The notes: generated by a model from the sequence alone, not told the origin. Positions 2-49,319 are shown, counted from the first letter of the stretch. The stretch is 64,000 bases of DNA from Planctomycetota bacterium (GCA_044222185.1 JBGANV010000003.1:736001-800000); one strand, 5' to 3'. Program-made: numbers and translations.

Positions 2-394
2 GACACGGGCGTCCTCTCAGCGTTCGAGTTGAGCATCGCACGGCAGGGTTTTGCGATGAACCTCTCCCAGCCGAACGGGTCGGCGGACGTGCGTGCGAAT
101 GACAGCGCCGGGGCAAGCATCGGCAACGCCTACTTCAACGCCTTCACGCTGAACGGCGGCAACTACCCCTACGGCTGGTTCTACGGGATCGACATCGCGT
201 ACAGCGATCTCCTCTTCCAGATCAATCTGCCGATCGGGTTCTTCAACGGAACGCTCGACGGGTCCGTCCGCGCCACGTCGACGATCCCCGGCCCGATCCC
301 TGCCGGTCTGACGGTCTACGGAACGGCGATCGAGATCGAGTCCGGCGCGTTGCGTCAGGTCTCCACTCCGACCGCGCACCAAACCGTCCCGTGA
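2..394 (+). CDS. Secreted proprotein-convertase P-domain protein, 3' part (runs in from the window edge); paralogue of the next gene
   Basis: Frame open from base 2 (DTGVLSAFELSIARQGF...). Matches the end of the P-domain and the whole C-terminal domain of 552..1916 (GNAYFN, GWFYGIDI, YSDLLFQ, GTLD). Confidence 0.85.
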   Translation, partial: DTGVLSAFELSIARQGFAMNLSQPNGSADVRANDSAGASIGNAYFNAFTLNGGNYPYGWFYGIDIAYSDLLFQINLPIGFFNGTLDGSVRATSTIPGPIPAGLTVYGTAIEIESGALRQVSTPTAHQTVP

Positions 395-409
395 CCTCGC
401 GGGTGCTCT

Positions 410-446
410 CGATCCCCGGCATCGACTCCCGTCGGTCCGGGGATCG
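410..446 (+). terminator. GC-rich hairpin after the stop codon (possible terminator)
   Basis: CGATCCCCGG...CCGGGGATCG perfect 10-bp inverted repeat, 15 nt after the stop. No clear U-tract. Confidence 0.4.
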
Positions 447-551
447 CTCGCGTTCGCGGTCCACGACCCCACGCGGATCTCCCGCTTCGCATCCTCCCCG
501 CGCGCGACCGCAACACACACGCCCGTTCGCATTCGTCCGAAGGAGCCTCCG

Positions 552-1916
552 ATGCCGCACCGAACCGCAACCTGTCTTGGCCTCGCCCTGTGTCTCGTCG
601 TGATGGCGCCCGCCCAGACGGCGCACGGTCCGGCCTTCGGGGCCACACCGAACGCGACGATTCCGCCATCCGGCACCGGGGGCGGCGCCTGCGGCGGGAC
701 ATCGAACACCTTCGACACGCATGCGACGGCGGCGTTCGCCGGTCTCGTCGGCAGCCTCGTGATCACGGTCGACATCGACCACAGCTATGCCGGCGACGTG
801 GTCATGACGCTGATCCACGATGGCGTCTCCGTCGTCCTCTCGGACGGAAACAACTTCGCGAGCGGCGGAGGCGCCGACCTTCACGGCGGATACAGCTTCT
901 CCGACGCGGCACCGACGGCGTTCGACGCGGCGCCCCTCGCACCCGGGGGAAGGCTCGCGGCCGGCACCTATCGGCCCGACAATCCCCTCTCCGCGTTCAC
1001 AGGAGCCGCCGTCGCCGGGATCTGGACGCTCCGCATCTGTGACCGCGCGGCCGGCGACGTCGGCGTGTTGCACTCGACGTTCCTCGACGTCAGAACGCTC
1101 GGCACGCAGGTCAGCGACCCCATCGTCCAGGCGCCGATCCCGCCCTCGGGGACCGGCGGAGGCTCGTGCGGCGCTCCCCCGAACACCTTCACGCACGTCG
1201 TGAACGTCGTGCAGACGGGCCGGGTCGGCGATGTCGCGACATACTTCGACATCACCCATTCCGCGTCGGGTGATCTCACGATCACGCTCAGCCACATGGG
1301 CGTGACGCGCACGATCTTCAGTCCGGCCATTGCCACGGGCGCTCTCGACTTCAACGGGTTCTACAGTTTCTGGGAGAACCGGTTCTCGCCCATCTCGGGC
1401 GCCAATGCGACGAGTGGAGCCCTCAACACGGGCTACTACAGGAGTCTCCAGGACTTCGCCCCGTTCCACGGCATGGAGATGTCGGGCCCCTGGTACCTGA
1501 CGATCTGCGATGGAGGTCCCTTCGACGTCGGCGTGCTGCACGGCTTCGTGCTGAGCATCGCGCGCCAGGGCTTCTCGCTCTCGATTGAGCAGCCCACGGG
1601 ATCGGCGAGCCTCGACGCCGTCGATCGACACGGTGCCGCCACCGGCAATGCCTACTTCAACGTCGTGACGTTGAATGCCGGCAACTACCCCAACGGGTGG
1701 TTCTACGGGATCGACATCGGCTACAGCGATCTCCTGTTCCAGCTCGACCTGCCGATCCCGTTTTTCCATGGAACCCTCGACGCATCGGTGCAGGCCGCGT
1801 CGTCGTTGCCCGGTCCGATCCCAGCCGGCATCCACGCATTCGCCACGGCGATCGAGTTCGAGAACGGGTCATTGCGCCAGGCATCGGCGCCGAGTCAATA
1901 CACCACGCTCCCGTGA
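552..1916 (+). CDS. Secreted protein with two proprotein-convertase P-domains and a conserved C-terminal domain
   Basis: AAGGAG RBS; signal peptide; two repeats of IPPSGTGGG-C-G...DI-H-S-x-x-GD...GxWxL-x-ICD...DVGVLH, typical of P-domains. Confidence 0.8.
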   Translation: MPHRTATCLGLALCLVVMAPAQTAHGPAFGATPNATIPPSGTGGGACGGTSNTFDTHATAAFAGLVGSLVITVDIDHSYAGDVVMTLIHDGVSVVLSDGNNFASGGGADLHGGYSFSDAAPTAFDAAPLAPGGRLAAGTYRPDNPLSAFTGAAVAGIWTLRICDRAAGDVGVLHSTFLDVRTLGTQVSDPIVQAPIPPSGTGGGSCGAPPNTFTHVVNVVQTGRVGDVATYFDITHSASGDLTITLSHMGVTRTIFSPAIATGALDFNGFYSFWENRFSPISGANATSGALNTGYYRSLQDFAPFHGMEMSGPWYLTICDGGPFDVGVLHGFVLSIARQGFSLSIEQPTGSASLDAVDRHGAATGNAYFNVVTLNAGNYPNGWFYGIDIGYSDLLFQLDLPIPFFHGTLDASVQAASSLPGPIPAGIHAFATAIEFENGSLRQASAPSQYTTLP

Positions 1917-2634: not shown

Positions 2635-2684
2635 GGCCGGGAAGTATGCCTCACTTCCGGCGTTTCTGAATAGGATCCTCCCCC

Positions 2685-5243
2685 ATGGACGATCTCAGCT
2701 CCGATCTCGCCATCGAAGTCGCCGTGATGGACGCCATCCTGGACGCGCGGGCGCAGGGACGATCCGTCACCGTCCAGGAGCTCTGCGAACGGTTCCCAGG
2801 GTGCGAGCCCGAGGTTGCCAAGGCGTTCCAGCGCGCGACCGCGCTCGGGTCGACCGACACGGAGATGCCGCGCCACGTCGACGCCGACGCCCCCGTCGCC
2901 AGACACACGCGGGTCGGGCCGTACCGCATCGAGTCGGAACTGGGCCGCGGAGCCCAGGGCGTCGTGTACATGGCGGTCGACGAGCGCCTCGACCGCCGCG
3001 TGGCGCTGAAGATCCTGCTTCCCTCCTGGGCGGCGTCGCCGCGGACGCTCCGCCGATTCGAGAACGAGGCCCGCACGCTCGCCGCCCTGGATCACCCGGG
3101 CATCTGCACGGTTCACGAAGCCGCGACGATCGACGGGACGCCCTTCATCGCCATGCGCCTCGTGGCGGGCGAGTCGCTCGTCGCCCGGATCTCGCACCTT
3201 CGGACGCAGCGCGACGGCGGGCGGCCACTCGCGGCGGACGTGGCGAGTGCGGTCGCGATCATCGAGAAGGTGGCACGCGCGGCCAACGCCGCGCACGAGG
3301 CGGGCGTCATCCACCGGGATCTCAAGCCCGCGAACGTGATCGTGTCCGACGCGGACGAGCCCACCATCCTCGACTTCGGGCTCGCGAGTTCGGCGGAGGA
3401 CGGCGACGGTTCCCTCACGATGAGCGGCGACATCCTCGGGACGCCCGCGTACATGGCACCCGAGCAAGCCGCGGGCAACATGGACGAGGTCGATCGCCGC
3501 GCCGACATCCACGCACTCGGCGTGATCCTCTTCGAGATGACGACGGGACGGCGGCCGTTCGATGCGCCCACGCGGTCCGGCCTGCTCGACGCCGTGTGCA
3601 ACACCGAAGCGCCCGACGCGCGGCGGACGAACCCCGAGGTCGACCGGGACGTGGCGACGGTGATCGCGCGCTGTCTCGCCAAACTTCCGAGCGACCGCTA
3701 CGCCTCCGCGCTCGACCTCGCGGACGACCTTCGACGTGTCCGCCTCCTCGAGCCGATCGCGGCCAGGCCCGTGTCGACTGCCGAGCGCGCGCTGCGCTGG
3801 GTCCGTCGAAACCCGCTGCGGGCGGCCCTGATCACGGTCATCGGCCTGCTTTTCGCCACGCTCATCGCCGGCGGCGCCTGGTACCTCGCCAACCGCGATC
3901 GCCTCGCGAGCCAGGAGGCCGCCGAGCGCCGTGCGCAGGTCGAAGAGGAGCTGGTCGAGGGTTCGACGGCCATGGCTGCGCTGCGCCAGGGTGCCGCCAT
4001 CGCCCACTACGAGGCCGCGCTCCGCCTCGACCCGTCCTCGGTCGAGGCCATCACGGCGCTCGCAATCTGCCTCGTCCGCCGCGGGCACCGGGACGTCGCG
4101 ATCCAACGCCTCGACGAGTTCGGAGGCCGCTTCGGGCGATCCTCGGCATGGTATTCGGCCCGCCGTTTCGCCGGACCCATTCCAAACGATCCCGAACCCC
4201 GTGCCACGAGTCGCCCTGACACCGCGTCGCCGCGTGATGACGTCTCCTGCTTCATCGAATCGATGAAATGCACCGCCGAGAGCGAGATCGGATCGGAGGA
4301 CGGCATCTCGCGCGCCTGCAACTGGCTCGAGGCGGCGATCCAACGGAGCCCGACCCGGCGCCTGCTCTATCTCAACAGCCTCGCGGCGGTCGCCAGCCGC
4401 CTCAACGACCGGACCACGGCGCAGCGCATCGCCGGGACGCTGCGCACCGTGCTCACGGGACCACGCGCCGAGGTACTGGCGGGACTCGCTCTCTGCCGCG
4501 CCGATCCGGACGCAGCGCGCGCAACGTTCGCTCGCGCGGAAGCGCTGGGCGGGAACCAGACGGACATCGGCTACGGGATGTTCACCATCCTCGTGGGCAG
4601 CCGCGACTTCGCCAGCGCCGCCGCACTCATGCGTGACATGCTCGCGCGCCGACCGGACGACGCCACGCTCTACTACAACCTCTCGCTGGCCGAGCTGAAA
4701 CTCGACCACGTCGCGCTGGCACTCGAGGCCGCGCGCCGCGCCGTCGAGCTCCGCCCCGACGTCGCCGCGAACCATGCCCAGGTCGGGATGATCCTGCGCG
4801 ATGGCCTCCAGCAGTTCGCCGCAGCCTCCGTCGAGTTCGAGCGCGCGCTGGCGTGCAGCCCAGCAAACCTCGAGGTCGCGGGCGAGCTGTCGCGCTGCCT
4901 GTCGTTCAAGGGTGACCAGCCGGCCGCGCTTGCGATGGCGCAGCGGGTCATCGACAAGGATCCGCAGAACGTCGTCGCCTGGCGGACGATCGCGCGAGCG
5001 CGCCTGCTTCTCGACGATCCAGAGGCGGGCGAGGCTGCCGCGCGTCACGTCGTCGAGCTCGCTCCGGAGTACGCGATCCACCATTTGGAGCTTGCCCGTG
5101 CCGTCGCGGCGAATGGTGACTTTGAAGGCGCGCGCAAGATCGTCGACGAGTGGTATGAACGGGCCGTCGCTTCGGGGCTCACCAGCTATCTGAACTTCCT
5201 GGAATCGAAATTCCCCGGGCTGGCACCGCCGCGGTCGAAGTGA
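2685..5243 (+). CDS. Membrane Ser/Thr protein kinase with C-terminal TPR repeats
   Basis: GRGAQG, VALK, HRDLKPAN, DFG and APE motifs; TM segment ALITVIGLLFATLIAGGAWYLA; TPR-like repeats (YEAALRLDP, ARRAVELRPD, VIDKDPQNVVAW). Confidence 0.95.
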   Translation: MDDLSSDLAIEVAVMDAILDARAQGRSVTVQELCERFPGCEPEVAKAFQRATALGSTDTEMPRHVDADAPVARHTRVGPYRIESELGRGAQGVVYMAVDERLDRRVALKILLPSWAASPRTLRRFENEARTLAALDHPGICTVHEAATIDGTPFIAMRLVAGESLVARISHLRTQRDGGRPLAADVASAVAIIEKVARAANAAHEAGVIHRDLKPANVIVSDADEPTILDFGLASSAEDGDGSLTMSGDILGTPAYMAPEQAAGNMDEVDRRADIHALGVILFEMTTGRRPFDAPTRSGLLDAVCNTEAPDARRTNPEVDRDVATVIARCLAKLPSDRYASALDLADDLRRVRLLEPIAARPVSTAERALRWVRRNPLRAALITVIGLLFATLIAGGAWYLANRDRLASQEAAERRAQVEEELVEGSTAMAALRQGAAIAHYEAALRLDPSSVEAITALAICLVRRGHRDVAIQRLDEFGGRFGRSSAWYSARRFAGPIPNDPEPRATSRPDTASPRDDVSCFIESMKCTAESEIGSEDGISRACNWLEAAIQRSPTRRLLYLNSLAAVASRLNDRTTAQRIAGTLRTVLTGPRAEVLAGLALCRADPDAARATFARAEALGGNQTDIGYGMFTILVGSRDFASAAALMRDMLARRPDDATLYYNLSLAELKLDHVALALEAARRAVELRPDVAANHAQVGMILRDGLQQFAAASVEFERALACSPANLEVAGELSRCLSFKGDQPAALAMAQRVIDKDPQNVVAWRTIARARLLLDDPEAGEAAARHVVELAPEYAIHHLELARAVAANGDFEGARKIVDEWYERAVASGLTSYLNFLESKFPGLAPPRSK

Positions 5244-6019: not shown

Positions 6020-6214
6020 CATCGCTCGCACGACATGCGACGTGTGGAAGAACGATGCGCGACGCCGCCGCGACGTTGACGGCTGCACGTGACCACATCT
6101 ACGATCACGCCCCGTCGGGGCAGTGCGTTTGGAGCGGGAGGGTATGCGATGAGGAAGCAGCGGGAATCATCCGTCGTCGGTGCGATGACGAGGCACGACG
6201 GGAGGAGAACGAGC

Positions 6215-9046
6215 ATGCGAGGAGCCGGCGTGCGTGCGATCCAGATTCTCTTCATGTTCACCTGCGGATCATGTCTCATCGCCCAGACCTGCATTCCCGG
6301 ATGGGGGCCAGGCTGCACGACCCTCGGAGGGATCCAAGGCGGTGTGACGGCATACACCGAGTACGACGCCGACGGCCCCGGGCCGGCGCCGAAGCTCCCC
6401 GTCATCGGTGGCAGTTTTGGGGTCGCAATCGGTGACGCCGAGGGCGCCAACTGGCGAATCATCCTCGTGCCGTCCTCGGCCGGTGGGGTGACAGCCCTGG
6501 CAACGCATGACTTCGATGGCCCTGGGCCAGGCCCGGTGGAGATCGTGGCCGCGGGCCGCGCCGGGACCTTCGTTTCCCAATACGCGGCGCCATTGGGTCG
6601 TTGGAATGGCACGACCTGGTCTACTTTCGGCACGGACCTGACTGGCTGGACCTACCCTGCACCGGTTACGCGAATGATCGAGTGGGACATGGACGGCGCG
6701 GGCCCCGGGCCCGCGGAGCTGATCATGGGCGGGGGATTCACCGCGCCCTCGATGCCGCCTGCATTCGGCGTCGCGCGATATGGCGGAAGTTGGAGCGCGC
6801 TCTCGCCGCTGGGATCCGGCGGAACGCCGAGACACACCAGTGTCGACGCGTTGATGGTGTGGGATGACGACGGCAACGGCCCCAATCCCCCGGCCCTCGT
6901 CATAGGATCCCACAGCAGCCTTAGAGGGACGACATCGTCGAGCCTGGTCCGCTGGGATGGACTGACGTCGACGCCGCTCGGTCAGGGGTTCAACGGAGCG
7001 GTACTCGACCTCGCCGTGTTCGATGACGACGGCCCGGGCCCTCACGTGCCGGCGCTCTTTGCCAGCGGATCGTTCACCCTCGCCGGTGGCGTCTCGGCGC
7101 CGCGCGTTGCGCGATGGAACGGTTCGGCCTGGAGCGCGACCGGCTTCGGCGTTGGCAGCGCCGTGAGGACGATCACACCTTTCGATCTCGACGGCCCGGG
7201 CCCGCTCGGGGAACGACTCATAGCGGGCGGAGAGTTCACGACGGCCAACGGAGCGAACGTCGGCAACGTGGCGAGCTTTGATGGAACGAACTGGATCCCC
7301 GTCTCGTTCGGCCTGGGCGTCGGCGGCGGCGCCACACCCATTCCAACCGTCGCGAAACTCGCTTCGCTCGATGCGGACGGAGCCGGGCCGGGAGAGCCAC
7401 GCCTCCTGGCGTTCGGGAACTTCGTGTCGGCCGATGGGGCGCCAGCAAATTCGGTCGCGATCTGGGACCGCGTTGCGTGGAGACCCACCGGACACGGATT
7501 CGTCCTACCGCCGCGCGCCATGGCGGTGTTCGACGCCGACGGCCCGGGTGCCGCTCCGGCGACGCTGTACCTCGCTGCTCCGCCTGTACAACTCACGACT
7601 ATGGCGGTCAGCCCCGTCCGCGCCTGGACCGGGAGCGCGCTTTACACCGTACCGTCCCCCGCGCTCATGACCGTGAACGACCTGATAGTGGGTGACCCTG
7701 ACGGCCCGGGACCGCTCCCCAACCGTCTGATCGCTGGCGGAGCGCCGACCCTGTTCGCAGCACCCGTGACGACCTTCGACGGGACCGCTTGGACGCAGCT
7801 TCCACCGCTCCCGGCGATACCGCCGTACACCGGCGTGAGGGCCATGACGTTCTTCGACGACGACGGACCCGGACCAAGCGCCCCGAAACTCGTAGCCGCC
7901 GACGACGGACACGTTGCGCGGTTCGATGGCGTCGCGTGGAGCCCTGTCGGAGTCCTCGGATCGTCCTACGGTGCTGTCCGAGCGATCGCGGCTTTCGACG
8001 ACGACGGCGCGGGGCCGAGGACCCCGGCGCTGTATCTCGGTGGTTCGTTCTCGACGCTGGCCGGCGCACCGTCGGGCGGGATCTCGCGGTGGAACGGGTA
8101 CTCCTGGGTGCCCATCGGGGTGCCCGCCGGAGTGAGCACGGCCGGCGGCGCGTTCAGCTCCGTGAATGCGCTGCTCGAATACGACCCGGACGGCGCGGGA
8201 CCACGGCCTGGGCTGCTCGTCGTCGGCGGCGATTTCGACACGGCTGGCGGAGTCCCCGCACTGGGAATCGCCGCGTGGAACGGATCCGGGTGGTCCGCAG
8301 CGTTCGGCTCCGGAGTCGTGCGTGGGAATCTCCCCGGAACGGTCTCGGCGATGGCGGTCGCCGACCTCGACGGGAACCCAGGAACACCCGACGAGCTCGT
8401 CGTCGCAGGCTCGTTCACGAGTGTCAGCGGGATTGCCGCCGAATCGATCGCCCACTGGAACGGGACGTCCTGGGCGCCGTTCGGCGGCGGCATCACTGCG
8501 CTCGGCAACTCGGTCCATTTCGCTTTTCAGCCTGCGGCGCCACCCGGCATCGCCGACCTCGCAATGTTCGACGAGGACGGGAGCGGCGGCGGCAGCGCGG
8601 CAGCCGCACTGCATGTATGCGGCCAATTCCTGACGGCCGGCGGAGTGTCGGCACCGCTCCATGCGCGCTGGGGAACGGCGCCGGGCTTGAGTCTCTCTCT
8701 GACCCGCGCGGGCCCGAACGCACCACTGCTCTTCACCGATTCCGCATGCGCCGGTCTGGACACCTGGTTCAACGCCATGAGTCTGGACCCGATGAACGCG
8801 GCATACCCGAACACCGGCCCCTGGTTTGGCCTGCACATCGGTCCCACGGATCTCCTGGGGCAGTTCCAGTCCGGCGTCGCACCGTTCCGAGGCACGCTGA
8901 ATGCGATAGGCAATTCCGTGACGTCGGCACCCGCATCGACTCTGATCCCCTACTCGGGCGTGAGGGTCTGGAGTGTGGGCGTCCGCTTCGACGCACCGAG
9001 CCTGACGGTGCATGGAGTATCGCCGGTGACGTCGATTCAGCTCTAG
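6215..9046 (+). CDS. Large secreted beta-propeller repeat protein (14 DxDGxGP repeats) with conserved C-terminal domain
   Basis: GGAGGAG RBS at 6201, ATG at 6215; signal peptide; repeats of D-x-D-G-x-G-P...L(Y/V)(A/V)GGxF...ARW(N/D)GxxW. Confidence 0.85.
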   Translation: MRGAGVRAIQILFMFTCGSCLIAQTCIPGWGPGCTTLGGIQGGVTAYTEYDADGPGPAPKLPVIGGSFGVAIGDAEGANWRIILVPSSAGGVTALATHDFDGPGPGPVEIVAAGRAGTFVSQYAAPLGRWNGTTWSTFGTDLTGWTYPAPVTRMIEWDMDGAGPGPAELIMGGGFTAPSMPPAFGVARYGGSWSALSPLGSGGTPRHTSVDALMVWDDDGNGPNPPALVIGSHSSLRGTTSSSLVRWDGLTSTPLGQGFNGAVLDLAVFDDDGPGPHVPALFASGSFTLAGGVSAPRVARWNGSAWSATGFGVGSAVRTITPFDLDGPGPLGERLIAGGEFTTANGANVGNVASFDGTNWIPVSFGLGVGGGATPIPTVAKLASLDADGAGPGEPRLLAFGNFVSADGAPANSVAIWDRVAWRPTGHGFVLPPRAMAVFDADGPGAAPATLYLAAPPVQLTTMAVSPVRAWTGSALYTVPSPALMTVNDLIVGDPDGPGPLPNRLIAGGAPTLFAAPVTTFDGTAWTQLPPLPAIPPYTGVRAMTFFDDDGPGPSAPKLVAADDGHVARFDGVAWSPVGVLGSSYGAVRAIAAFDDDGAGPRTPALYLGGSFSTLAGAPSGGISRWNGYSWVPIGVPAGVSTAGGAFSSVNALLEYDPDGAGPRPGLLVVGGDFDTAGGVPALGIAAWNGSGWSAAFGSGVVRGNLPGTVSAMAVADLDGNPGTPDELVVAGSFTSVSGIAAESIAHWNGTSWAPFGGGITALGNSVHFAFQPAAPPGIADLAMFDEDGSGGGSAAAALHVCGQFLTAGGVSAPLHARWGTAPGLSLSLTRAGPNAPLLFTDSACAGLDTWFNAMSLDPMNAAYPNTGPWFGLHIGPTDLLGQFQSGVAPFRGTLNAIGNSVTSAPASTLIPYSGVRVWSVGVRFDAPSLTVHGVSPVTSIQL

Positions 9047-9144: not shown

Positions 9145-12048
9145 ATGAATAGCCAAGGCTGCGTGAGTCACGGTCCGCCTTCGACCGAGGAACCGAATGA
9201 CCGGAAACTCCCTGCAGATCCGAGACGCCGCGGATCGTGCATGCTCGCCGGGCTGGTGTGCCTGATCGTGCATACGGCCGTTGCGCAGACGTGCGCTCCG
9301 GGCTGGGCGACTGGGCCGGGGACACTCGGTGGCGTCGGCGGCACCGTGTACACGTCGACGACCTGGGATCCCGACGGACCCGGACCCACGGTCCCAATCC
9401 CCGTCTTGGGAGGAGGCTTCGGCGTCGCATTTGGTTCCCCCTCCGGCAACAGCTGGTATCTGAATGGTCCAGTGCACCAGGCCAACGTGTCGGCGTTCGC
9501 GTGCGTCGACTTCGACGGGCCTGGACCGGCACCATGCGAGCTGGTGGCCGCCGGGTGGTTCGTCGACCCCGCCGTTGGATCAGCGCCGCTCGCCCGATGG
9601 GACGGAACGCGATGGCTCCTCTTCGGCGCTGATCTCATCACCCCAACGCCTACGTCGTTCGCAGACATCAATGGCCTGTGCGCGTGGGACCCCGACGGCA
9701 GCGGCCCGGGCACCGAGGTGCTCATCGTCGCCGGAGATTTCATCGCGCCGTGCACTCCGCCCGGGTTCGGAGTCGCAGCGTACTCGGGCGCCTGGGCGCC
9801 GCTGTCACCAAATGCCAGCGGTGGCACCACGCAAGGGACAGTCGGGATGGCGGTCGCGACGTGGGACGACGACGGCACCGGCCCGCACGCGCCCGGCCTC
9901 GTGCTGTCCGAAACGAACCCCTTCACGATCCCCAACACGAACCGCGTGACGTTCTGGTTGGCCGGACAATCGACCGTTCTTGCAGGCGCATTCAATGCCG
10001 CGGTGCAGACCTTCGCGGCGTTCGACGAGGACGGAATCGGTCCGCAGCCGCCACGACTCTTCGCCGCGGGTACGTTCGCGGGCGTGAACGGCCAGTTAGT
10101 GCCTGGATTCGCGCGCTGGAACGGGGCGAATTGGGGCACGCCACCAGCCGGCCCGTCGCCCACGACGGGGGTTGCGTGCATGCTGGCATTCGACCTCGAC
10201 GGTCCGGGGCCGCTACCCGAGCAGCTGGTTGTGGGAGGACGAGCCACCGCGGCGAACGGAGGTTTGACGGTCAGCACCACCGCGCTCGGGCCGTCGGGCT
10301 GGACGTCCGTCGGATCGGGGTTCGGCTCGGCCGGTCCAGGCTCAACACCGGGATCCGTGAATACCCTCGTGTCCATCGACATCGACGGGATAGGGCCGGC
10401 GGCGCCCCGTCTGCTTGCGGCCGGTGCATTCGACGACGTGAACGGTCACCACGGCCAATCCGTCGCGATCTGGGGGACGGGCACATGGGGAACGACGGGC
10501 ACGGGTCCGAACACTCCACCGAACGCACTATCGGTCTTCGATCCGGACGGCACAGGCCCAGGCCCATCGAAGCTCTACATCTCCTCCCCGCCGCTGACGA
10601 CGTTCGGCAACTTTCCAACCGACATCCTCGCCTGGGATGGAAGCTCGTTTCAGTCACTGTCAGCGACGCCCACGGGGCTCATCCACGATCTGCTGAACGC
10701 GGACATCGACGGGCCGGGTCCGATTCCAGCCCGGCTGTATGCCTCGGGACGGTTTGGCTCCAGTCCCTTGCCTCAGTTCCAACACGTAGTCGAGGCATTC
10801 GACGGAACGACGTGGACGCCGCTGCCGACGTCGACCACCACGTTGTGCCGCGCCATGACGATGTATGACGACGATGGACCGGGGCCCAACCCCGCGAGAC
10901 TGACCACGGCCGGAACGGGCACGCCCGCGTCTTACGACGGATCCAGCTGGACACCTCTGGGCGTGACTGGCCCGAACGGAACGATCAACACGCTCAGCGC
11001 GTTCGACGACGACGGCCCCGGCCCGGGTCTGCCCCTGCTCTATGCTGCCGGGGGATTCACGAACATTGCAGGGCTCACCACCAACTCCATCATGCGGTGG
11101 AACGGTTTTTACTGGTGGACAGTTGGCGCCGGCCTGTTCGTCAATCCCGGCGGCGGCGTTCCCGGGACCGCGAACGCCATGGTCGATTACGACCCCGACG
11201 GGCCCGGCCCGCTGCCACACATGCTCGTCGTCGGGGGAGTATTCGGGGGTGCGGGAAGCCTCGCGGCCATCGGGATTGCCGCGTGGAATGGCACCGCCTG
11301 GTCGAACGCCTTCGGTAACGTGATGCAGGCCAACGGCAACTACGGAACGATCTCCGCTCTCGCGGTCGTCGACTTGGATTCGAATCCCACGACGCCTGGA
11401 GAACTCGTGGCCACCGGCGACTTCATCTCGATCGGGGGTGTCGCCGCGGCGTCGATCGCGCATTGGGATGGGTTCAATTGGTCCGCATTCGGATCGGGGC
11501 TCGGCGGCGCCACTGCAGCGCCCTATTTCCCATATCAACAGATCCTGCTCCCCGGCGGCAACGACATCGCGGTCTACGACGAGGATGGAACCGGAGCCGG
11601 CAACCCGGGCATGTATGTTTCGGGCGTATTCGTGACGGCCGGTGGTCATGCCTCCACGTATCTCGCGCGCTGGGGCGTCGACCCGAGCACGAGCCTCTCT
11701 CTTGCGACGGCGGGCCCGGGAACGGCACTGTCGATCATGACGTCGGCGTGCGTCGGGTTCTCGCACGCCTTCACGGCCTTCAGTCTGGATCCGAGCAACG
11801 CCCTGAGCCCAGGCACGGGACCCTGGTTCGGGCTCCACATCAGCGTGAACGACCTCGTCGCGCAGTATCAGTTCGCGAGTCCGCCGTTCGTCGGGACGCT
11901 CGACGCGTTCGGCCTCTCATCTTCCGTCGTTCCTGCTGCCACGATCGCACCGCTGGTCGGGCAGAACCTCTTCGCCGTAAGCGTCCTCTACGATCCCTCC
12001 ACTCTGACGGCCTTCGGCGTTTCTCCGGTGGCCTTCGTCCAACTGTGA
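9145..12048 (+). CDS. Large secreted beta-propeller repeat protein (14 DxDGxGP repeats); tandem paralogue of 6215..9046
   Basis: Collinear repeats; shared N-terminal QTC-x-PGW...TLGG; shared C-terminal domain (SLDP..N...GPWFGLHI...PFxGTL). Confidence 0.85.
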   Translation: MNSQGCVSHGPPSTEEPNDRKLPADPRRRGSCMLAGLVCLIVHTAVAQTCAPGWATGPGTLGGVGGTVYTSTTWDPDGPGPTVPIPVLGGGFGVAFGSPSGNSWYLNGPVHQANVSAFACVDFDGPGPAPCELVAAGWFVDPAVGSAPLARWDGTRWLLFGADLITPTPTSFADINGLCAWDPDGSGPGTEVLIVAGDFIAPCTPPGFGVAAYSGAWAPLSPNASGGTTQGTVGMAVATWDDDGTGPHAPGLVLSETNPFTIPNTNRVTFWLAGQSTVLAGAFNAAVQTFAAFDEDGIGPQPPRLFAAGTFAGVNGQLVPGFARWNGANWGTPPAGPSPTTGVACMLAFDLDGPGPLPEQLVVGGRATAANGGLTVSTTALGPSGWTSVGSGFGSAGPGSTPGSVNTLVSIDIDGIGPAAPRLLAAGAFDDVNGHHGQSVAIWGTGTWGTTGTGPNTPPNALSVFDPDGTGPGPSKLYISSPPLTTFGNFPTDILAWDGSSFQSLSATPTGLIHDLLNADIDGPGPIPARLYASGRFGSSPLPQFQHVVEAFDGTTWTPLPTSTTTLCRAMTMYDDDGPGPNPARLTTAGTGTPASYDGSSWTPLGVTGPNGTINTLSAFDDDGPGPGLPLLYAAGGFTNIAGLTTNSIMRWNGFYWWTVGAGLFVNPGGGVPGTANAMVDYDPDGPGPLPHMLVVGGVFGGAGSLAAIGIAAWNGTAWSNAFGNVMQANGNYGTISALAVVDLDSNPTTPGELVATGDFISIGGVAAASIAHWDGFNWSAFGSGLGGATAAPYFPYQQILLPGGNDIAVYDEDGTGAGNPGMYVSGVFVTAGGHASTYLARWGVDPSTSLSLATAGPGTALSIMTSACVGFSHAFTAFSLDPSNALSPGTGPWFGLHISVNDLVAQYQFASPPFVGTLDAFGLSSSVVPAATIAPLVGQNLFAVSVLYDPSTLTAFGVSPVAFVQL

Positions 12049-14040: not shown

Positions 14041-14049
14041 CGTCGTCGG

Positions 14050-19200: not shown

Positions 19201-20067
19201 ATGAGAATCGCATCGATCGGCACGCTGATGTGCCTCGTCATTTCAGCCCCCGCGCAGCAGGTCTGGCTGCCGAGCTCAGGCGGCAACGGCCACACCTACG
19301 AGGTCCGCGTCGTCCAGGGAGGCATCAGCTGGCTCGCCGCCTCGACGGACGCCATCGCGCGCAACGGGCACCTCGTGACGATCACGAGCGCGGCCGAGAG
19401 CGCCTTCGTCCTCTCGCTCGTGAACACACCGACCTGCTGGGTACCGAACCCGTACGGCTACAGCTTCGGACCGTGGATCGGCGCCTATCAGCTGCCCGGC
19501 TCCGTCGAGCCGAACGGCGGCTGGGTGTGGGTGACCGGCGAGCCCATGGTCTACACCAACTGGCTGCCCGGGCAGCCGAACAATTCGTGTGCGCCAGGCG
19601 AGGATCACGCGCACTTCATGGAGAACACGTACCCGGCGCGCGGGAACTCCTGGAACGACCTCGCCCCGGCTTCCTGCGGGATGCCGAGCGCCTACGTCGT
19701 CGAGTGGGACGTGAGCCTCGTCGTCGACCAGCCCCAAGGGCCCGGCACGCCCATCATCGTCACGAACCACGACCTGAACCTGGGAAGCGAGTACTTCAAC
19801 GTGTTCAGCACCGACGTGTGCGCGGGCACGGGAGCAGGGCCGTACCTGGGACTGTGCGCCAGCGGGGGCGCGGGACTTCAGCTCATTGCGCTGCAGGTCC
19901 TCGCGCCGCTGAGCACGCCGCCGTTCCACGTCCTGGCGACGTCGCCGTCGGCGTCATGGCCAGCCGTACCCAACGTCCCGCCGATCACGATCCAGGGCGT
20001 CTGCTTCGAGGTCGTCGGGGGCTCGATCGGTGAGACGTCCCGCGTCGTCACGTTCACCGTCTTCTGA
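19201..20067 (+). CDS. Secreted C-type lectin domain protein with conserved C-terminal domain
   Basis: GNGHTY, SW..A, GHLVTITSAAE, WIG, WVWVTGEP..YTNW.PGQPNN, WND; GAGGA RBS. Confidence 0.88.
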   Translation: MRIASIGTLMCLVISAPAQQVWLPSSGGNGHTYEVRVVQGGISWLAASTDAIARNGHLVTITSAAESAFVLSLVNTPTCWVPNPYGYSFGPWIGAYQLPGSVEPNGGWVWVTGEPMVYTNWLPGQPNNSCAPGEDHAHFMENTYPARGNSWNDLAPASCGMPSAYVVEWDVSLVVDQPQGPGTPIIVTNHDLNLGSEYFNVFSTDVCAGTGAGPYLGLCASGGAGLQLIALQVLAPLSTPPFHVLATSPSASWPAVPNVPPITIQGVCFEVVGGSIGETSRVVTFTVF

Positions 20068-21101: not shown

Positions 21102-21151
21102 GGTGAGGCGCGGATCTTACCGCGGAGACGGCGGGGAGCGCGCAGCGGAGG

Positions 21152-33877: not shown

Positions 33878-33916
33878 CCTCGGCGACCGCCGCTTGCGGG
33901 GATCGAGGAGACTCAC

Positions 33917-37565: not shown

Positions 37566-39085
37566 GCAACGTCCGACCCGACATCGATCTCGGCGCGCTC
37601 TCACGGACGCCGACGGCCGTCGCACCGCCGCCCCGCCGCTGGCTGCGGATCGTCGTTCCGATCCTCATCCTCGGGACGTTCGCGGCGATCCTCTTCACGA
37701 GCCTCGGCGACGTGTTCCGAAGCGCCGTGGAGGTGACCGTCATCCGGCCACGCCCCGCGGCCTCGTCCGGCGGCGCGTCCGCCTCGAGCGTCGCGTTCCA
37801 GGCGGCGGGATGGGTCGAGCCCAACCCGTACCCGACGCTCGTGACGGCGCTGACGTCGGGCGTCATCAGCGAGGTCCTCGTCCTCGAGTCGGACGCGGTC
37901 AAGGCCGGCGACCCCGTGGCGAAACTCGTCGATGCCGACGCGCGCCTCGCGCTCGAGGGGGCCGAGGCCGCACTCGCGCGTGCTTCCGCGGAACGAGCGA
38001 AGGCGGCAGTCGAGCTGACCAACGCCGACGAATCGTTCCGCGCCGCACTCGACGTGACGGAAGCCGACGCGACGGCGAAGGCGGACCTGGACGGCAAGAA
38101 GTCCGAGAGCGTCTTTCGCGCGGCCGCAGTCGTCCAAGGCGAGGCCCAGTTCCGGATCGCGCAAGAAGAGCTCGCCGTCCAACAGGAGCTGGTGCGCGCC
38201 TCCGCAGCGGGACCACGCGCCGTGGAGATCGCCGTCGCCAAGGTCGACGAAGCCCGGGGCAACCTGGAGGCGCTGCGGGGCAGCGCCGCCGCGGCGAGTG
38301 CAGAAGTGAAGAAGGCCGAAGCCCGCCTCGCGCGAACGAGTGCGGACCGACAACTCCGTCTTTCCGACCGGCTGCGCCTGGAGTCGGCGAAGACAGGTGC
38401 GGCACTGGCGGAGGCGGCAGTGCGCGAGGCCACGGTCGCGCGTGACGTCGCCGCGCTGCGGCTCGAACGAACGGTCGTCCGAGCGCCGGCGGCGGGGATC
38501 GTCCTCGAGCGGCTCGTCGCACCGGGCACCCCCGTCGGAGCTACCGACGGCGGCGGTGCGCCCGTGTGCTCGCTCTTCGATCCACGCTCGGTGCGAGTCC
38601 GCGTCGACGTGCCCCTGTCCGAGATCGGCAAGGTGCGGCCGGGACAGAGGGCAGAGATCGCAAGCGAGGCGCGCGCGGGCCGACCCTATTCGGGCGATGT
38701 GATCCGCATCGTCCAGAAGGCGGACATCCAGAAAGTGACGCTGCAGGTCCAGGTGAGGATCGACGACAGCGACGCCCTCCTGCGGCCCGAGATGCTCTGC
38801 CAGGTGCGATTCCTGGCCGACGCCGCATCGAGCCAGGCGTCGCGAGGCGCGGACGCACCGGTCGACCGCGTGCTCGTTCCCGAGAAGCTCGTGCTCGGAG
38901 GGAACGCCGTCTGGGTCGTCGACCCGATCGGACACTCGGCGCGACGTCGAACCATCGAAGTGGGAGGCCGCAACGGCGAGTGGGTCGAAGTCAGATCCGG
39001 CCTGAATCTTACGGACAAGCTGATCGACGAGGGTCGCAACCAGGTCAGCGAAGGCGCGCGCATCCGCGTGCGCGGAGGCGAGTGA
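37562..39085 (+). CDS. Efflux periplasmic adaptor (membrane fusion protein)
   Basis: TM near the N-terminus; AAGWVEP...SGVISEVLVLE.D.VKAGDPVAKL; long coiled coil; VRAPAAGIV; LRPEM. The ATG overlaps the TolC stop. Confidence 0.92.
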   Translation: MSNVRPDIDLGALSRTPTAVAPPPRRWLRIVVPILILGTFAAILFTSLGDVFRSAVEVTVIRPRPAASSGGASASSVAFQAAGWVEPNPYPTLVTALTSGVISEVLVLESDAVKAGDPVAKLVDADARLALEGAEAALARASAERAKAAVELTNADESFRAALDVTEADATAKADLDGKKSESVFRAAAVVQGEAQFRIAQEELAVQQELVRASAAGPRAVEIAVAKVDEARGNLEALRGSAAAASAEVKKAEARLARTSADRQLRLSDRLRLESAKTGAALAEAAVREATVARDVAALRLERTVVRAPAAGIVLERLVAPGTPVGATDGGGAPVCSLFDPRSVRVRVDVPLSEIGKVRPGQRAEIASEARAGRPYSGDVIRIVQKADIQKVTLQVQVRIDDSDALLRPEMLCQVRFLADAASSQASRGADAPVDRVLVPEKLVLGGNAVWVVDPIGHSARRRTIEVGGRNGEWVEVRSGLNLTDKLIDEGRNQVSEGARIRVRGGE

Positions 39086-39086
39086 C

Positions 39087-39778
<692 letters not shown>

Positions 39779-39782
<4 letters not shown>

Positions 39783-40918
39783 AGCTGTTCAAGCTGATCC
39801 GGCGGAACCTGGGCCGACGGCCACTGCGGACGTTGCTCACCGTGCTCGGCGTCGCGAGCGCCATGCTCCTCCTCGTGCTCGTCGAGAGCCTGAGCCGAGG
39901 GCTGGATCACGCACTCTCCGGCACGGAGGCCGCGCGAACGCTCATCGTCTACCGCCAGAACCGGTACTGCCCGCAGACGTCGTTCCTTCCGGAGCGCTAC
40001 GCGGCGCAGATCCGCAGGGTGCCGGGCGTGGTGAGCGTGCTGCCCGTGAAGGTCTTCCTGAACAACTGCCGCGCAAGCCTCGACCTCGTGGCGTTCCAGG
40101 GCGCGCCGGTCGACGATCTCTTCACGGCGCGGAAGATCGACGTCATCCGCGGCGACGTTGCGAAGTTCCGAGACGAGCGCGATGCGGCGCTCGTCGGTCG
40201 CGCGTTCGCCGAACGAAAGAACCTGGACGTCGGCGACAAGTTCCGGTTCGGCAACATCAACGTGAAGGTGGCGGGCGTGTTCGGCTCGGCCGAGCCGATC
40301 GAAGAAGGCGTGATCCTGACCCACCTCGAGTTCCTCCAGCGCGCCGGGCCCGTGAACAAACTGGGGACCGTGACGGAGTTCGAGGTCAAAGTGAGCGACG
40401 CGTCGCAGGCGCGGGAGATCAGCCGCGCCATCGACGCCCTGTTCCGCTCGGAGGAAGCCCCGACGGATACGCGCGCGAAGGTACTCTTCCTCGAGAACGC
40501 GACGCGCGACATGCGGGAGATCCTCCGATTCGCGCGACTTCTCGGCATCGCATGCGTGCTGGTCGTGCTCGCCCTCGTCGGCAACACGGTCGTGATGTCG
40601 GTGCAAGAGCGGGTGAAGGAGTTCGGCGTGATGCGGACGTTGGGATTCGGCGAACGAAGCATCGCGTTCGTCGTTCTCGGCGAAGCGGTCCTTCTTGCGA
40701 CCTTCGGCGGCTGCGTCGGACTGGGCGCGGCTCTCGCTGTCATCCACTTCTCGCACCTCTCGATCGGCGCCGAGGGCGTGGCCGTGGCGTTCTCCACGTC
40801 GCCCGAGCTCATCATGACGGGAGTGGGCATCGCCCTCTCGACCGGCGCGCTTGCCGGCCTCATCCCGGCGATCCGCTCGTCCCGTCTCGAAATCGTCGCG
40901 TCGCTCCGGAGTGCATGA
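39779..40918 (+). CDS. ABC transporter permease (FtsX/MacB type) 1
   Basis: RNLGRRPLRTLLT; large periplasmic loop; SVQERVKEFGVMRTLGF; LIPAIRSSR. Confidence 0.93.
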
Positions 40919-42102
40919 CCATGGGCCGCAGACTTCCGTTCGACTACGCGGTCCGCAATCTCGGTCGCCGGCCGCTACGCACCGTTCTTACGGGGACGTC
41001 GAGTGCCCTCGTCGCCGCGCTGCTCGTTGCGACCACCGCGTTCGTTCGAGGGCTCGAGGACACGTTCGCCGGCGCCGCACAGGCGGACACGGCCATCGTT
41101 CTGTCGAAGGTCTCCGAACGCGACGTCGTGAGGTCGACGGTCACGGCGGGCTTGCCCGAACTCGTAGCGGCCTCCGTCACGGGCGTGAAGGTCGTCGACG
41201 GAACGGCACTCGTCTCCGGCGAGATCCACATGGCGACGAACCTGCACCTCGGTCCGGCGGCGCCGCCGTCCGAGCGCGATGCCACCTACCAGGCATTCGT
41301 GCGCGGGATCACGTCGCGCGCGTTCTTGGTTCACGATGCCGTGAACATCACCGAGGGCCGCGCTCCGCGCAGCGGCGAGGTGCTGGTGGGCCGGCTCGTG
41401 GCGCAACAGCTCGGCGTGCCGGATGCGGCGCTCGCCGTCGGGCAGAAGCTGCGGTTCGAGGGCGCGACGTTCACCATCGCCGGACGCTTCGTCGCGCCCG
41501 GAACGACCATCGAGGCGGAGATCTGGACGGACCTGTCCGAGCTCCGCGGCCTGACGCGTCGCGACGACAGCTCGGCCGTGTTCGTCCGCATGGAGAAGCC
41601 CGGGGATTTCGCCGAGCTCGACCTCTTCTGCCAGCGGCGACTCGATCTCGAGATCGCCATGATGCCGACGGCGCTCTACTACCGAGAGCTCTCCGACTAC
41701 TTCGTGCCCATCCGGCGTCTCGCGTGGGCCATGGCCGCGATGATCGTCGGCGCGGCATTGTTCGGCGGGGCGAACACTCTCAACGCCGCCGTGCAGGATC
41801 GCGTGAAGGAACTGGCCACGCTTCGGGCCGTCGGCTACTCGGGACTCGCTCTCGTGCGCTCGCTCGGCCAGGAATCGATCGTCCTGGCGGCCGGTGGCGG
41901 CGTCCTCGGGCTCTTGCTCGCCCGGCTGTTCCTCGCCGGCAGCGCCGTCCGGATCGCCATGAGCGCCTTCGCGTTGAAGGTCGATGCCGTGGCGATCCTC
42001 GTTGGATTCGGCGGCGTGCTCGTCCTCGGACTTCTCGGCTCCGTACCCGCGGCGGCCCGCGTCATGCGGCTGCCGATTGCCTCGGCCCTCAAGGAAACGT
42101 AA
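40915..42102 (+). CDS. ABC transporter permease (FtsX/MacB type) 2
   Basis: RNLGRRPLRTVLT; AVQDRVKELATLRAVGY; PAAARVMRLPI. Start at 40915 or 40921. Confidence 0.93.
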   Translation: MTMGRRLPFDYAVRNLGRRPLRTVLTGTSSALVAALLVATTAFVRGLEDTFAGAAQADTAIVLSKVSERDVVRSTVTAGLPELVAASVTGVKVVDGTALVSGEIHMATNLHLGPAAPPSERDATYQAFVRGITSRAFLVHDAVNITEGRAPRSGEVLVGRLVAQQLGVPDAALAVGQKLRFEGATFTIAGRFVAPGTTIEAEIWTDLSELRGLTRRDDSSAVFVRMEKPGDFAELDLFCQRRLDLEIAMMPTALYYRELSDYFVPIRRLAWAMAAMIVGAALFGGANTLNAAVQDRVKELATLRAVGYSGLALVRSLGQESIVLAAGGGVLGLLLARLFLAGSAVRIAMSAFALKVDAVAILVGFGGVLVLGLLGSVPAAARVMRLPIASALKET

Positions 42103-42667: not shown

Positions 42668-43757
42668 TCACAACGTGAGGCTCTCCAGGTTCGTCGACGC
42701 GAGAACCTGGAGCGTCGCCGGGTCGTAGAACGCGGTCACACCGAAGACTCCCTGGCCGATCAACGCGGGCGGGATCGCGCCCGCAGGGAACGTGAACTGC
42801 GAAGCACCCCCGCCGTCGAGCGACCCGACGAATGGCGGTGCTTGTGACGCGAATTGCGACAGCAGCTCGGTGTAGGTCACGTGGAGCCCGAGCCAGAATG
42901 CGTTCGTGCTCGCGGCGGGGCCGGAATTCGCGGGGTCGAGGCTTATCGCCGTGAAGTACGCCTCGCCGGCTGCCCCGCCGACGTTCCGAAGCACGATCAC
43001 CGAACCGCCGGACGGACGTTCGAACCAAAGCGCCGGCCGCCTGACGGTCAGTGCGAACGGAGCGCTCGTCGTGGTGCCGCAACCGTTCGCGACCGTCACG
43101 GTGTAATTTCCCTCGTCGGCGAACGAGAACGACGGGATGGCAAGCGTCGGCGAGGTCCCGCTCCCCACGATCGCACCGCCGCGTCGCCAGACGTACGACA
43201 TGGGTGGCGCGCCCCGCCCAGCGAGGGAAACGACCCACCGGCGTAAAGGTGCGTCCCTGCCGCCGTCGTGTGCGTTGCGAGACACGTCACGACGGCGTTC
43301 GAGTATCCCGACCACGGGAGGGAACCGACGGGAGAGAAGGCCGTGCCGTTCGAGCGCGCGATGCCGTTGCATGCGACTCCGCCAGCCAACGTGAATTCAC
43401 CACCGACGTAGAGGGCGCCGGGCCGTAGACCGGGTCCGCGTACGACCGCAGGGCGAAAACCGGCGCGCTGAACGGGCCAGAACTCACGCCGCCCCCGGTT
43501 CCCTCCCAGGCCGTTCCATCGAACATCGCGATGTTGTTGAAGACCTGCCCACTGGCGGTCGGGGAATTCCCGGCGGCCCAGAGTCGGGGTCCCTGCCCCG
43601 CGTCATGGGCTGCGATCGTGTAGACGTCGGCAAATCCGCCGGCCTGCACCGGAAACCCGAACCCGCCGACGAACGATGGATCGCAGCCTGACTGGGCCAT
43701 CAGGCGCGGACACACGATCAGACATGCCCGTGCGATCACCTTCATGGGTTGAGCCAT
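42668..43757 (-). pseudogene. Frameshifted and internally deleted secreted beta-propeller/Ig protein with conserved C-terminal domain
   Basis: Three consecutive frames give one protein type: signal plus propeller blades (to about 43413), LYVGGEFTLAGGVACNGIAR (to about 43215), then a partial Ig domain (MSYVWRR...DEGNYTVTVANGCG) plus the C-terminal domain. Confidence 0.75.
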
Positions 43758-46934: not shown

Positions 46935-46969
46935 GCTGATGGTTCCGTGACTCGTGGGTTGGCGGAAAA

Positions 46970-48205
46970 TCACTCCGGCTTCGCGCGGTGCGCGTGCCCG
47001 GATTCGAACTTCTGGAGCTGTGCGTCCGCGTAGTCGATGACGTGGCGGACGTACGCGCGTTTCTCCAGGTAGCTCCCCGGGTAGAACGACCGCTTGAAGC
47101 CGTAGATGAGCGAATCGCGCACTTCGGCCGGACTGAGCCCGAACGCGTCGAAGGCGCGGAGGATCTCGCGGCTGACGGACGTCCGCGAGACGAGACGGTT
47201 GTCGGTGCAGAACGTCGTCGAGAGGCGGCGCCGCCGCATCTCGGCGAACGGGTGCTTGCGGAGGTCATCCGCCAGCTCGGGCACCGTTTGCTGGTTGCTC
47301 GTGAGGCAGACCTCGATCGTGATTCGGCGGTCCGCGATGTACTGCGCGAGGCGGCTCACGTAGGCCTCCTTGTCACGAACCGAGTCGCCGACCTTGTCGA
47401 CGTCGAAGAGCCACGTCCCATGACCGATGCGATCGGCGTGGCAGTCCCCGATGGCCTGGAAGATGGACTCCGGGCCGTAGTCCTCGCCTGCATGCACGGT
47501 CTTGCCGAGGAACGACTCGTGCGCCACCTGATAAGCGTCGCGGTGGAGGTTCGCGGGATAGCCCTTCTCCTGCCCGGCCAGATCGAAACCGACGATCGGC
47601 AGGCCGCTCTCCCACCTCAACCGACTGCCCGCGCGGGCCAGCTCCAGGCTCGCGTAACGGAACACGTCCTCCGGCGGAGAGTAGCGGTGCACCTGGCAGA
47701 GGCGTCGATACTCGTCCGAGAACTCGTCGGAGAAGAACCGCAACGCGCAGAAGATGATCCCGGCGTGGAAGGCCGGGCGCTGCATCTGTTTCACCTCGGG
47801 ATGGGCGTTGTGCTCGCGCTCGGCTCGCTGAAGTCCCTTGGCGACGGCCTCCGCGACCTGGACGATCGACATCCGGCTCGAGACATGAAGCTGCGGCGCG
47901 AAACGCACTTCGATGTAGACGACGCCCTCCTGTTGGCAGTCGATCGCGAGTTCATAGGCGACCCGTTCGAGGGCTTCGGGTGTCTGGAGTACGGCGCAGG
48001 TGTATCGGAACCCGAGCAGATACTCACCCAGGTTCGCGTAACGGGACTTGAACACCGTCTCGGTGAGCCCGGCCTCCGTGTAGGACGGCAGCGTCACACC
48101 TTGTTCGCGCGCCAGCTCCACGAGCGTGCCCAGTCTCAGGGATCCGTCGAGGTGAAGATGGAGGTCCGTCTTTGGGAGCGCACGGACGAGCGCTTCGAGA
48201 CTCAT
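46970..48205 (-). CDS. add: Adenosine deaminase family protein
   Basis: [44 protein letters not shown]. Confidence 0.88.
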
Positions 48206-48389
48206 CGACTCCGTTCCTGGCATGCGGACATGGTGAATGAAACTCCAATCCTTGCAACGCCGGCAGCGGTTTTCGGCACGTGACGAGAGCTTTGCCGCGG
48301 CCGCACTTTTTGGCCGGGCGAAGGGGCGTCTGGTACCATCGCACGACTTCTCCCCGGATCGATCGTCCACCCTCCTTCAAGACACAACG

Positions 48390-49319
48390 ATGCGAATCAT
48401 TACCGCGACCTGCCTCGCGTTCCTGACGGCTTTGACGCCCGCACAAGCGGGGCTGCGCGTCAACGAGATATCCACCGGGACCACCGACTGGCTCGAGCTC
48501 GCCAACTTCGGCGGCGTGACGATCCACCTCGGCGGCTACAAGGTCTTCTGCGGCGGCAACCAGAGCGGTGCCTTCCAGTTCGGCCAGTTCATCATCCCCG
48601 CGAACGTGAACATCGCGCCGAACCAGCTGATCGTCATCACGGATGACGCGACCCTCGCCTCGCCGACCGTGCCGTCGGGCGGCCTGAAGCTCTACTCCGG
48701 CTTCGACATCATCTGGTCGAACGTCCCGGGCGGGAACGGCAGTGGCCAATGCACGCTGACGGATGCCAACAGCCTCGGCGTCGATACGGTGCGTTGGGGC
48801 ACGCCACTCCAGGACCTGTCCCTCGGCGCCTCGTTTTCGGGGACCGTCTCCCTCGGGACGATCATGCGTCGGACGTCCAACGGCGACACGAACTCATCCA
48901 CGGATTGGTTTTCGACGAGCGCGTCCGGCGCGTCCGCCGGCGCTTTCAACCTGGGTCAGACGTTCGTGCCGGTGCTTCAACTGACGGGTACGACGACGGG
49001 GCTCGGGGACCTGAGCCTCACCGTGACGACGCTCACGCCGGCAGTCCCGAGTGGCGAGATCTTCAACTTCGTCTCGCTGGTCGACACGGTTCCGGACGGC
49101 TCGGGGCCGCTCTTCGGCGTGGATGCCTCGGCGCTGCAGCAGGCGCTGACTCCGCTCTCGCCAGCCAACCCGTTCCACACGCCGCTCGATGCCAACGGAC
49201 ACTGGAACATCTTCGCGCCCGTCGGCTCGCTCCCGCACCTTCACCTGGAGGTCGTGTCGATCCTGCTGGAAGGCGGGCTCATCACCCGCACGTCCGGGGT
49301 CGTCGCCCTCGACATCTGA
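48390..49319 (+). CDS. Secreted lamin-tail-domain protein with conserved C-terminal domain
   Basis: Signal peptide; LRVNEI...DWLELAN...L.GY...IAPNQLIVI...VDTVRWG, typical of LTD. Confidence 0.85.
   Translation: MRIITATCLAFLTALTPAQAGLRVNEISTGTTDWLELANFGGVTIHLGGYKVFCGGNQSGAFQFGQFIIPANVNIAPNQLIVITDDATLASPTVPSGGLKLYSGFDIIWSNVPGGNGSGQCTLTDANSLGVDTVRWGTPLQDLSLGASFSGTVSLGTIMRRTSNGDTNSSTDWFSTSASGASAGAFNLGQTFVPVLQLTGTTTGLGDLSLTVTTLTPAVPSGEIFNFVSLVDTVPDGSGPLFGVDASALQQALTPLSPANPFHTPLDANGHWNIFAPVGSLPHLHLEVVSILLEGGLITRTSGVVALDI

Follow-up and report, generated by a model that had tools for sequence, protein, structure and literature searches.

A divergent C-terminal beta-sandwich on secreted proteins of a planctomycete order is a candidate sorting or surface-anchoring tag

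We analysed a 64,000-nucleotide stretch of a Planctomycetota genome (G000:C7:736001-800000, hereafter the window; the genome has 7.08 Mb, 68% G+C and 16 contigs), in which seven protein-coding sequences end in a common C-terminal domain of about 115-130 residues with a core of about 114, here called the tail. All seven tails are members of one domain family. The same family closes dozens of further proteins of this genome, mostly with signal peptides and with very different N-terminal passengers, and it is expanded in one planctomycete order. We give a slightly better than even chance to the tail being a sorting or surface-anchoring tag of Sec-exported proteins; between a translocation signal and a surface-retention anchor, the balance appears roughly even.

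Translation placed the seven segments where the initial annotation had read them, strand included. Carrier A, a P-domain protein, enters the window as its 3' end (2..394, + strand) with the tail at about 2-385 (profile match G000:C7:735996-736385, E 3.1e-34); its 5' end lies outside the window. Carrier B (552..1916, +) consists of a signal peptide, two proprotein-convertase P-domain-like units (P_proprotein 2.4e-11) and the tail (1524-1907, profile 5.2e-36). Carrier C (6089..9046, +) has a signal peptide with a likely start near 6185, a DxDGxGP-repeat propeller and the tail (8630-9043, profile 3.8e-31), and is followed by its paralogue, carrier D (9145..12048, +; tail 11629-12045, profile 1.4e-31). 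The propellers of both give weak Pfam propeller matches, which for carrier C are partial matches to Rax2, DUF5122 and DUF6087. In carrier E (19201..20067, +) a signal peptide and a C-type lectin domain (Lectin_C 6.9e-7) precede the tail (19669-20061, profile 3.9e-29), and in carrier G (48237..49319, +) a signal peptide with likely start 48390 and a lamin-tail domain (LTD 1.6e-7) precede it (48906-49316, profile 1.8e-22). Carrier F (42668..43745, - strand; tail 42671-43093, profile 1.8e-30) is a remnant, as had been suspected: its immunoglobulin (Ig) part gives Pfam matches to Ig_2/Ig_3, and blastx places this part together with the tail in frame -1 (about 42671-43230), and upstream propeller-like fragments in frames -2 (43321-43464) and -3 (43434-43745), without a signal peptide. 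Sec-type signals had been ascribed to every carrier with a visible N-terminus. They are seen within the window on B, C, D, E and G, and the full open reading frame (ORF) of A, with its 5' end read from the genome, has one as well.

The relatedness of the tails was established by sequence comparison. BLASTP of the last 125 residues, with E-values that refer to a database of these seven sequences only, connected A with B (64% identity, 1.5e-53), C with D (50% identity, 6e-33), D with F (3e-17), C with F (1.5e-11) and B with C (1.7e-8); the lectin carrier E and the lamin-tail carrier G had weak links, the best at 0.001-0.005. A first profile was made from the five tails with clear links (A, B, C, D and F). 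Carrier G joined the iterated profile in round 2 at 3.8e-5 and carrier E in round 3 at 2.2e-11; when the profile was rebuilt without these two, it scored E at 6.5e-20 and G at 4.9e-13. The reversed ORF set gave 0 matches at E<10. Because of these leave-out scores and the empty reversed set, chance is excluded, and the proposal of the initial annotation that the seven tails are one domain holds. Its by-eye consensus also agrees with the computed one, QPxGxG...YFxxxS...GxGPxxGL...LxxQ...PFxGxLDxxG...PxxxPxG...V...S, over the part that runs to PFxGxLDxxG.

To define the family in the whole genome, we searched its six-frame ORFs with a minimum length of 60 residues (61,510 in all). The five-tail profile matched 36 ORFs at domain E<1e-4, all of them at the C-terminal end, and four iterations brought the number to 45, 59, 64 and then 67. 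This count of carriers is a lower bound, because the iterated profile lost at least one true carrier (C8:103300-109956, present in the first profile round and missing from the final 67). A separate profile search of the genome with the alignment of the 67 tails gave 84 matches, a figure that counts matches and not copies. Nowhere in the genome are carriers denser than in the window, where 7 lie within 64 kb. Each of the 67 ORFs has a single copy of the tail, and the match ends 0-17 residues before the stop codon (within 6 residues in 63/67). The copies are strongly divergent: over the 67 tails mean column identity is 25%, and two glycines alone are near-invariant. The core is acidic (median pI 4.3, net charge -4), lysine is absent in 53/67 copies, and cysteine is not conserved, being absent in 29/67.

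Terminal position is equally evident in public sequences. Among 1.84 billion representatives, the family matched 1,342 clusters at E<=1e-3, or 1,011 when the threshold was E<=1e-10, and the tail ended no more than 10 residues from the C-terminus in 145 of the best 150. With regard to export, a signal-peptide-like hydrophobic N-terminal segment was the best-scoring one in 61/67 genome carriers, and a cruder yes/no version of our home-made hydrophobicity rule was positive for 52/67 carriers and for 223/600 random genes. The copies are thus neither mostly internal nor mostly on proteins without signal peptides, in keeping with the layout first proposed.

The distribution of the family is that of a lineage-specific expansion. 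When 40 relatives were searched with the 67-tail alignment, matches were found in 22/22 genomes of the same order, which represent four families, with 5-50 matches each, and in 1/18 other families. In a sample of 201 genomes covering the phylum, the genome studied here and all 9 sampled order members matched, and 8/191 non-order genomes had 1-3 weaker matches. The tail is therefore expanded in one planctomycete order and sporadic elsewhere in the phylum. A relative with a complete genome, G173, carries two copies. As to the host lineage, the closest named relatives of the DAHP synthase encoded in the window come from Planctomycetota metagenome-assembled genomes (72% and 70% identity, against at most 65% for any other). 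A related-locus search with carrier B as query returned no relative, and a homologue search with the P-domain passenger returned 5 proteins, too few for a comparison of tails elsewhere.

The passengers were classified by a Pfam scan of 66 carriers. Propeller and repeat types were represented by Rax2/DUF5122-type propellers (11), FG-GAP (8) and RCC1 (2), lamin-tail domains by LTD (10), and peptidase or associated types by astacin (5), P-domain (5), subtilase (S8; 2) and a C25 peptidase with propeptide (1). C-type lectin (2), HYR (2) and Ig arrays were also present, as were three Pfam families named for type IX secretion system (T9SS) tails: GBD_T9SS_assoc (2), Ig_7 'CHU_C associated' (2) and SprB (1). 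As judged from these matches, the passengers have no relation to one another and are of types characteristic of surface or secreted proteins. The presence of peptidases raises the possibility that the tail is a C-terminal pro-domain or intramolecular chaperone, comparable to the bacterial pre-peptidase C-terminal (PPC) domain, which we take to be a relevant comparison. Such a module would aid folding or latency and be cut off after secretion, with no role in addressing. The tail is a small beta-sandwich located terminally on signal-peptide proteins, and at least 12 carriers belong to peptidase or peptidase-associated types (astacin 5, S8 2, C25 1, P-domain 5), all of which would suit this explanation. 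On the other hand, most carriers are non-enzymes (LTD, FG-GAP, propellers, Ig arrays, lectins), a folding helper is not expected to serve such unrelated passengers, and Pfam PPC does not match the tails, so that we regard a PPC-like function as improbable.

Two observations concern the same proteins. Two big secreted-type proteins encoded among the carriers of the window have no tail, namely an FG-GAP repeat protein (32003-34147, -) and a TSP3/reprolysin-like protein (49624-52545, +); therefore the tag is not universal on such passengers. The signal segments of carriers usually finish in A-x-A-Q or G-Q, and signal peptides tend more generally to finish in [AGS]-Q (examples in the window at 552-640, 19201-19265 and 48390-48455). 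At cleavage sites predicted by a crude rule, Q was the commonest +1 residue in carriers (12/33) as well as in other exported proteins (165/806), and [AGS]Q was found in 83/86 public family members bearing a signal peptide. No type I glutaminyl cyclase (PF05096) turned up. These endings resemble the 'Q-rule', which its authors describe as Bacteroidetes-specific (PMC5837995).

We then asked what kind of domain the tail is. The initial annotation did not recognise it as a named family, and neither did our searches. No Pfam family, Por_Secre_tail included, matched the tails recurrently (0/67 at E<=10), Pfam and NCBIfam placed no family on the last 115-130 residues of the seven window proteins, and a PDB sequence search with the tail gave nothing below E 0.33. 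The ESM Atlas contained only unnamed, mostly planctomycete clusters, below 0.9. An AlphaFold2 model of the carrier B residues encoded by 1512-1913, made with the 67-row alignment, reached a pLDDT of 90.3 and a pTM of 0.79 and contains nine strands and one inserted helix. The model thus confidently predicts an autonomous fold, a generic beta-sandwich of the fibronectin type III (FN3)/Ig kind. Foldseek against the PDB returned nothing at E<=1e-3, its best matches being FN3 domains with TM 0.4-0.5. With an independent structural aligner (48,161 chains) the best match was an FN3 domain of neogenin (Z 9.1, rmsd 2.5 over 93 residues), and 4 chains reached Z>=8. The likeness is in fold only, since the fn3 and Ig families of Pfam gave no match on the tails.

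This fold class brings up a second alternative, in which the tail is an ordinary ligand-binding or adhesion module, similar to FN3 domains or carbohydrate-binding modules (CBMs), that has been shuffled onto secreted proteins and binds an external substrate or partner without any role in sorting. The best structural match would fit this well, the fold matches include a beta-glucan-binding domain and accessory domains of glycosidases, and many carriers are lectins or adhesin-like. Like PPC and FN3/CBM accessory modules, the tail is a small C-terminal beta-sandwich of the FN3/Ig fold class on Sec-exported proteins; unlike them, it has no match to their hidden Markov models, it is strictly terminal and single-copy, and its passengers are mostly non-enzymatic. 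As a rule, binding modules are found in internal, N-terminal or tandem positions too, which contrasts with the position of the tail in 67/67 genome carriers and in nearly all of the best public representatives. Moreover, the 67-tail alignment shows little conserved surface beyond Gly/Pro loop motifs, and the tail occurs on proteases, lectins and repeat proteins alike. A binding module without sorting function is therefore unlikely in our view, while deserving more weight than a PPC-like domain.

The architecture of the carriers invites comparison with established C-terminal sorting systems, above all with the type A C-terminal domain (CTD) of the T9SS (Por_Secre_tail, PF18962 / TIGR04183). In both cases a Sec signal and a variable passenger are followed by a small Ig-like sandwich at the extreme C-terminus, there are dozens of carriers per genome, and the copies are strongly divergent paralogues, T9SS tails being read largely by fold. 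The passengers of both include C25 and S8 peptidases and T9SS-associated Pfam families. The literature describes the T9SS CTD as an export signal, a 3+4 beta-sandwich, which PorU cleaves (PMC4804311, PMC11285876). Unlike this seven-stranded domain, the tail is modelled with nine strands and an inserted helix; it is also longer (about 114-130 versus about 75-90 residues), acidic and nearly lysine-free, and its host belongs to the Planctomycetota. No T9SS CTD was among the fold matches listed; there may nevertheless be a likeness at that level.

Three further searches bear on kinship with the T9SS. The profile of the 67 tails was compared by hhalign with 23 authentic Por_Secre_tail domains taken from Bacteroidota (three genomes), with a resulting probability of 0.1%. 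Por_Secre_tail itself was not found in our genome, while the control search recovered 16-25 copies in each of the 3 Bacteroidota genomes. SprA and PorV were likewise not found in this 93.8%-complete genome (GldK/L/M/N were not searched), with positive controls in 3/3 Bacteroidota. Because Pfam gives no match, hhalign gives 0.1%, and Por_Secre_tail, SprA and PorV were not found, the tail is, as far as sequence comparison goes, not related to the T9SS tail. One could still imagine a very divergent true T9SS CTD served by a cryptic T9SS. The shared layout and the T9SS-associated passengers agree with this, and the genome encodes a PorU-like C25 peptidase whose best NCBIfam match is PorU (NF033707, 150 bits, E 4.8e-44) and whose best PDB sequence relative is also PorU (6za2_A, 2.3e-9), ahead of gingipain R. 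The NF033707 match, however, covers the peptidase domain only and, at 150 bits, does not reach the cut-off of 420 bits set for the family. Taken with the search results and with the acidic, lysine-free composition of the tail, this makes a cryptic T9SS highly improbable.

The second system for comparison is PEP-CTERM/exosortase, with which the tail has in common that many secreted proteins in a single lineage bear the same C-terminal tag. The initial annotation had set the tail apart from PEP-CTERM signals, and we agree: with more than 110 residues it makes up a folded domain, and it has neither a transmembrane helix nor a basic end, in contrast to the motif-transmembrane-basic-tail layout, and Exosortase_EpsH was not found in the genome (control positive in M. 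jannaschii). As neither exosortase nor Por_Secre_tail was found, our searches of this genome revealed no further bulk signal for C-terminal sorting. The genome encodes eight secretin-family proteins, so a route of the type II secretion system kind across the outer membrane exists.

Our favoured explanation, that the tail is a sorting or surface-anchoring tag, can be put as follows. The module would be a lineage-specific, independently folding C-terminal cargo tag in the form of an acidic, almost lysine-free FN3/Ig-like sandwich. Carriers would be exported by Sec and their signal peptide cut, as their N-termini suggest. The layout of the proteins further suggests that the folded tail at the free C-terminus would then be read by an envelope component, and that this component would either move the carrier across the outer membrane or hold it on the outer membrane or the cell surface. 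The tail would thus act in the manner of a T9SS CTD without being kin to it. We favour this explanation because a Sec signal, any of many passengers and one terminal, divergent sandwich are combined in dozens of carriers, because the family is expanded in one lineage, and because the passengers are of types sorted by T9SS in Bacteroidota.

Several points weigh against it. The support for a tag comes only from architecture and distribution. Among extracellular sandwiches the FN3/Ig fold is the most common one, and secreted enzymes, too, frequently carry binding modules of the FN3/CBM type at the C-terminus. Five of the best 150 public representatives (P0008, P0091, P0115, P0120 and P0144) have the tail in a non-terminal position, and P0008 has two internal copies. 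The rule by which signal peptides were judged is also positive for 37% of random genes. Specific co-occurrence with the tail family was found for no receptor, translocon or processing enzyme, and no machinery-type gene is a conserved neighbour of the carriers; what recurs within four genes of them are extracytoplasmic function (ECF) sigma factors and Ser/Thr kinases. The lineage-specific export or anchoring signal envisaged by the initial annotation is consequently borne out in its layout and lineage expansion and not in the co-occurring translocon or peptidase, and the function proposed for it derives from layout.

Two genes were considered as parts of a machinery and rejected. An Rce1-like/CPBP intramembrane protease (49326-49952, +; Pfam 3.2e-7) begins 7 bases past the stop codon of carrier G, runs into the stop-to-stop frame of the long ORF that follows (49624-52545) and has no paralogue in the genome. 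As a sorting enzyme it was rejected, being found in only 2/22 other genomes of the order (G019, 3.4e-42; G021, weakly, 3.1e-5). A C25 peptidase that itself bears a tail (G000:C1:676975-679443) was considered as a conserved component, but no close orthologue was found in the other genomes.

The PorU-like C25 peptidase introduced above is a machinery candidate, which we consider a weak lead. It is encoded outside the window (G000:C1:2008849-2011524) as a single-copy protein of 892 residues with a signal peptide (Pfam Peptidase_C25, 5.5e-73). Full-length orthologues (E<=1e-89) are present in 18/22 order genomes; of the remaining four, one gives a partial, weak match and three give no match, and the catalytic residues His614 and Cys655 are invariant in 14/14 aligned orthologues. 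The peptidase half is found in 79/201 genomes of the phylum (about 70/191 of those outside the order), most of them without the tail; of the 8 genomes outside the order that match the tail weakly, 5 have the PorU-like peptidase. To our knowledge, Planctomycetota lack a T9SS. No tail-bearing genes and no machinery-like conserved neighbour were seen around the peptidase in 14 loci (about 207 kb). One neighbour family recurs there (6/13 other loci), divergently transcribed; at this position our genome has a gene whose translation looks, by eye, like a B12-binding radical-SAM enzyme. A predicted complex of peptidase and tail scored 0.00 and was counted neither way. It is tempting to speculate that a T9SS-independent planctomycete pathway reads folded, lineage-specific C-terminal sandwiches for surface placement, with the PorU-like peptidase as a sortase or tag peptidase shared by several tail families, although we would call this a doubtful proposition at present.

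With respect to the recurrent neighbours of the carriers, two ECF sigma families have 6/20 and 3/5 of their members near carriers and one kinase family has 10/45, against a background of 9.4% of genes. An example in the window, beside carriers A and B, is an ECF-type sigma factor gene (1969-2694, -) that is divergent to a gene for a Ser/Thr kinase-TPR protein (2670-5240, +), and sigma/kinase pairs of this kind recur beside carriers elsewhere in the genome. They possibly reflect a dedicated regulation of surface proteins. Other genes of the window adjoin carriers as well. A multihaem cytochrome with MtrC/MtrF-like domains (20076-21116, -) directly follows the lectin carrier E. The region 36081-42102 (+), which adjoins the remnant carrier F, encodes an outer-membrane efflux protein (OEP), then an ABC ATPase, with more long ORFs in between and beyond, in a layout that resembles a MacAB-TolC-type tripartite exporter. 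The remaining features are a VTC-domain and DUF4956 pair (13357-14931, -), which by family name is polyphosphate-related, one tRNA gene (18631-18703, -) and a Ser/Thr kinase fused to an FGE-sulfatase domain (60748-62817, -).

Planctomycetes possess an outer membrane, and their secretomes are very large. A full-text literature search (supplements excluded) found no description of a planctomycete C-terminal cargo domain or of a bulk surface-protein sorting signal. What this analysis adds is a profile test against real T9SS tails, controlled searches for SprA, PorV and Por_Secre_tail, the expansion at the level of the order, and the lead to a PorU-like peptidase. The tail family provides a list of cargo proteins, a profile that can give a label to more than 1,300 protein clusters at present called 'hypothetical', and a concrete handle for finding the machinery. 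A folded tag borne by the products of 1-2% of a genome's genes, apparently unrelated to the T9SS tail and in a genome in which no T9SS translocon was found, points to an uncharacterised route of envelope sorting or anchoring in these bacteria.

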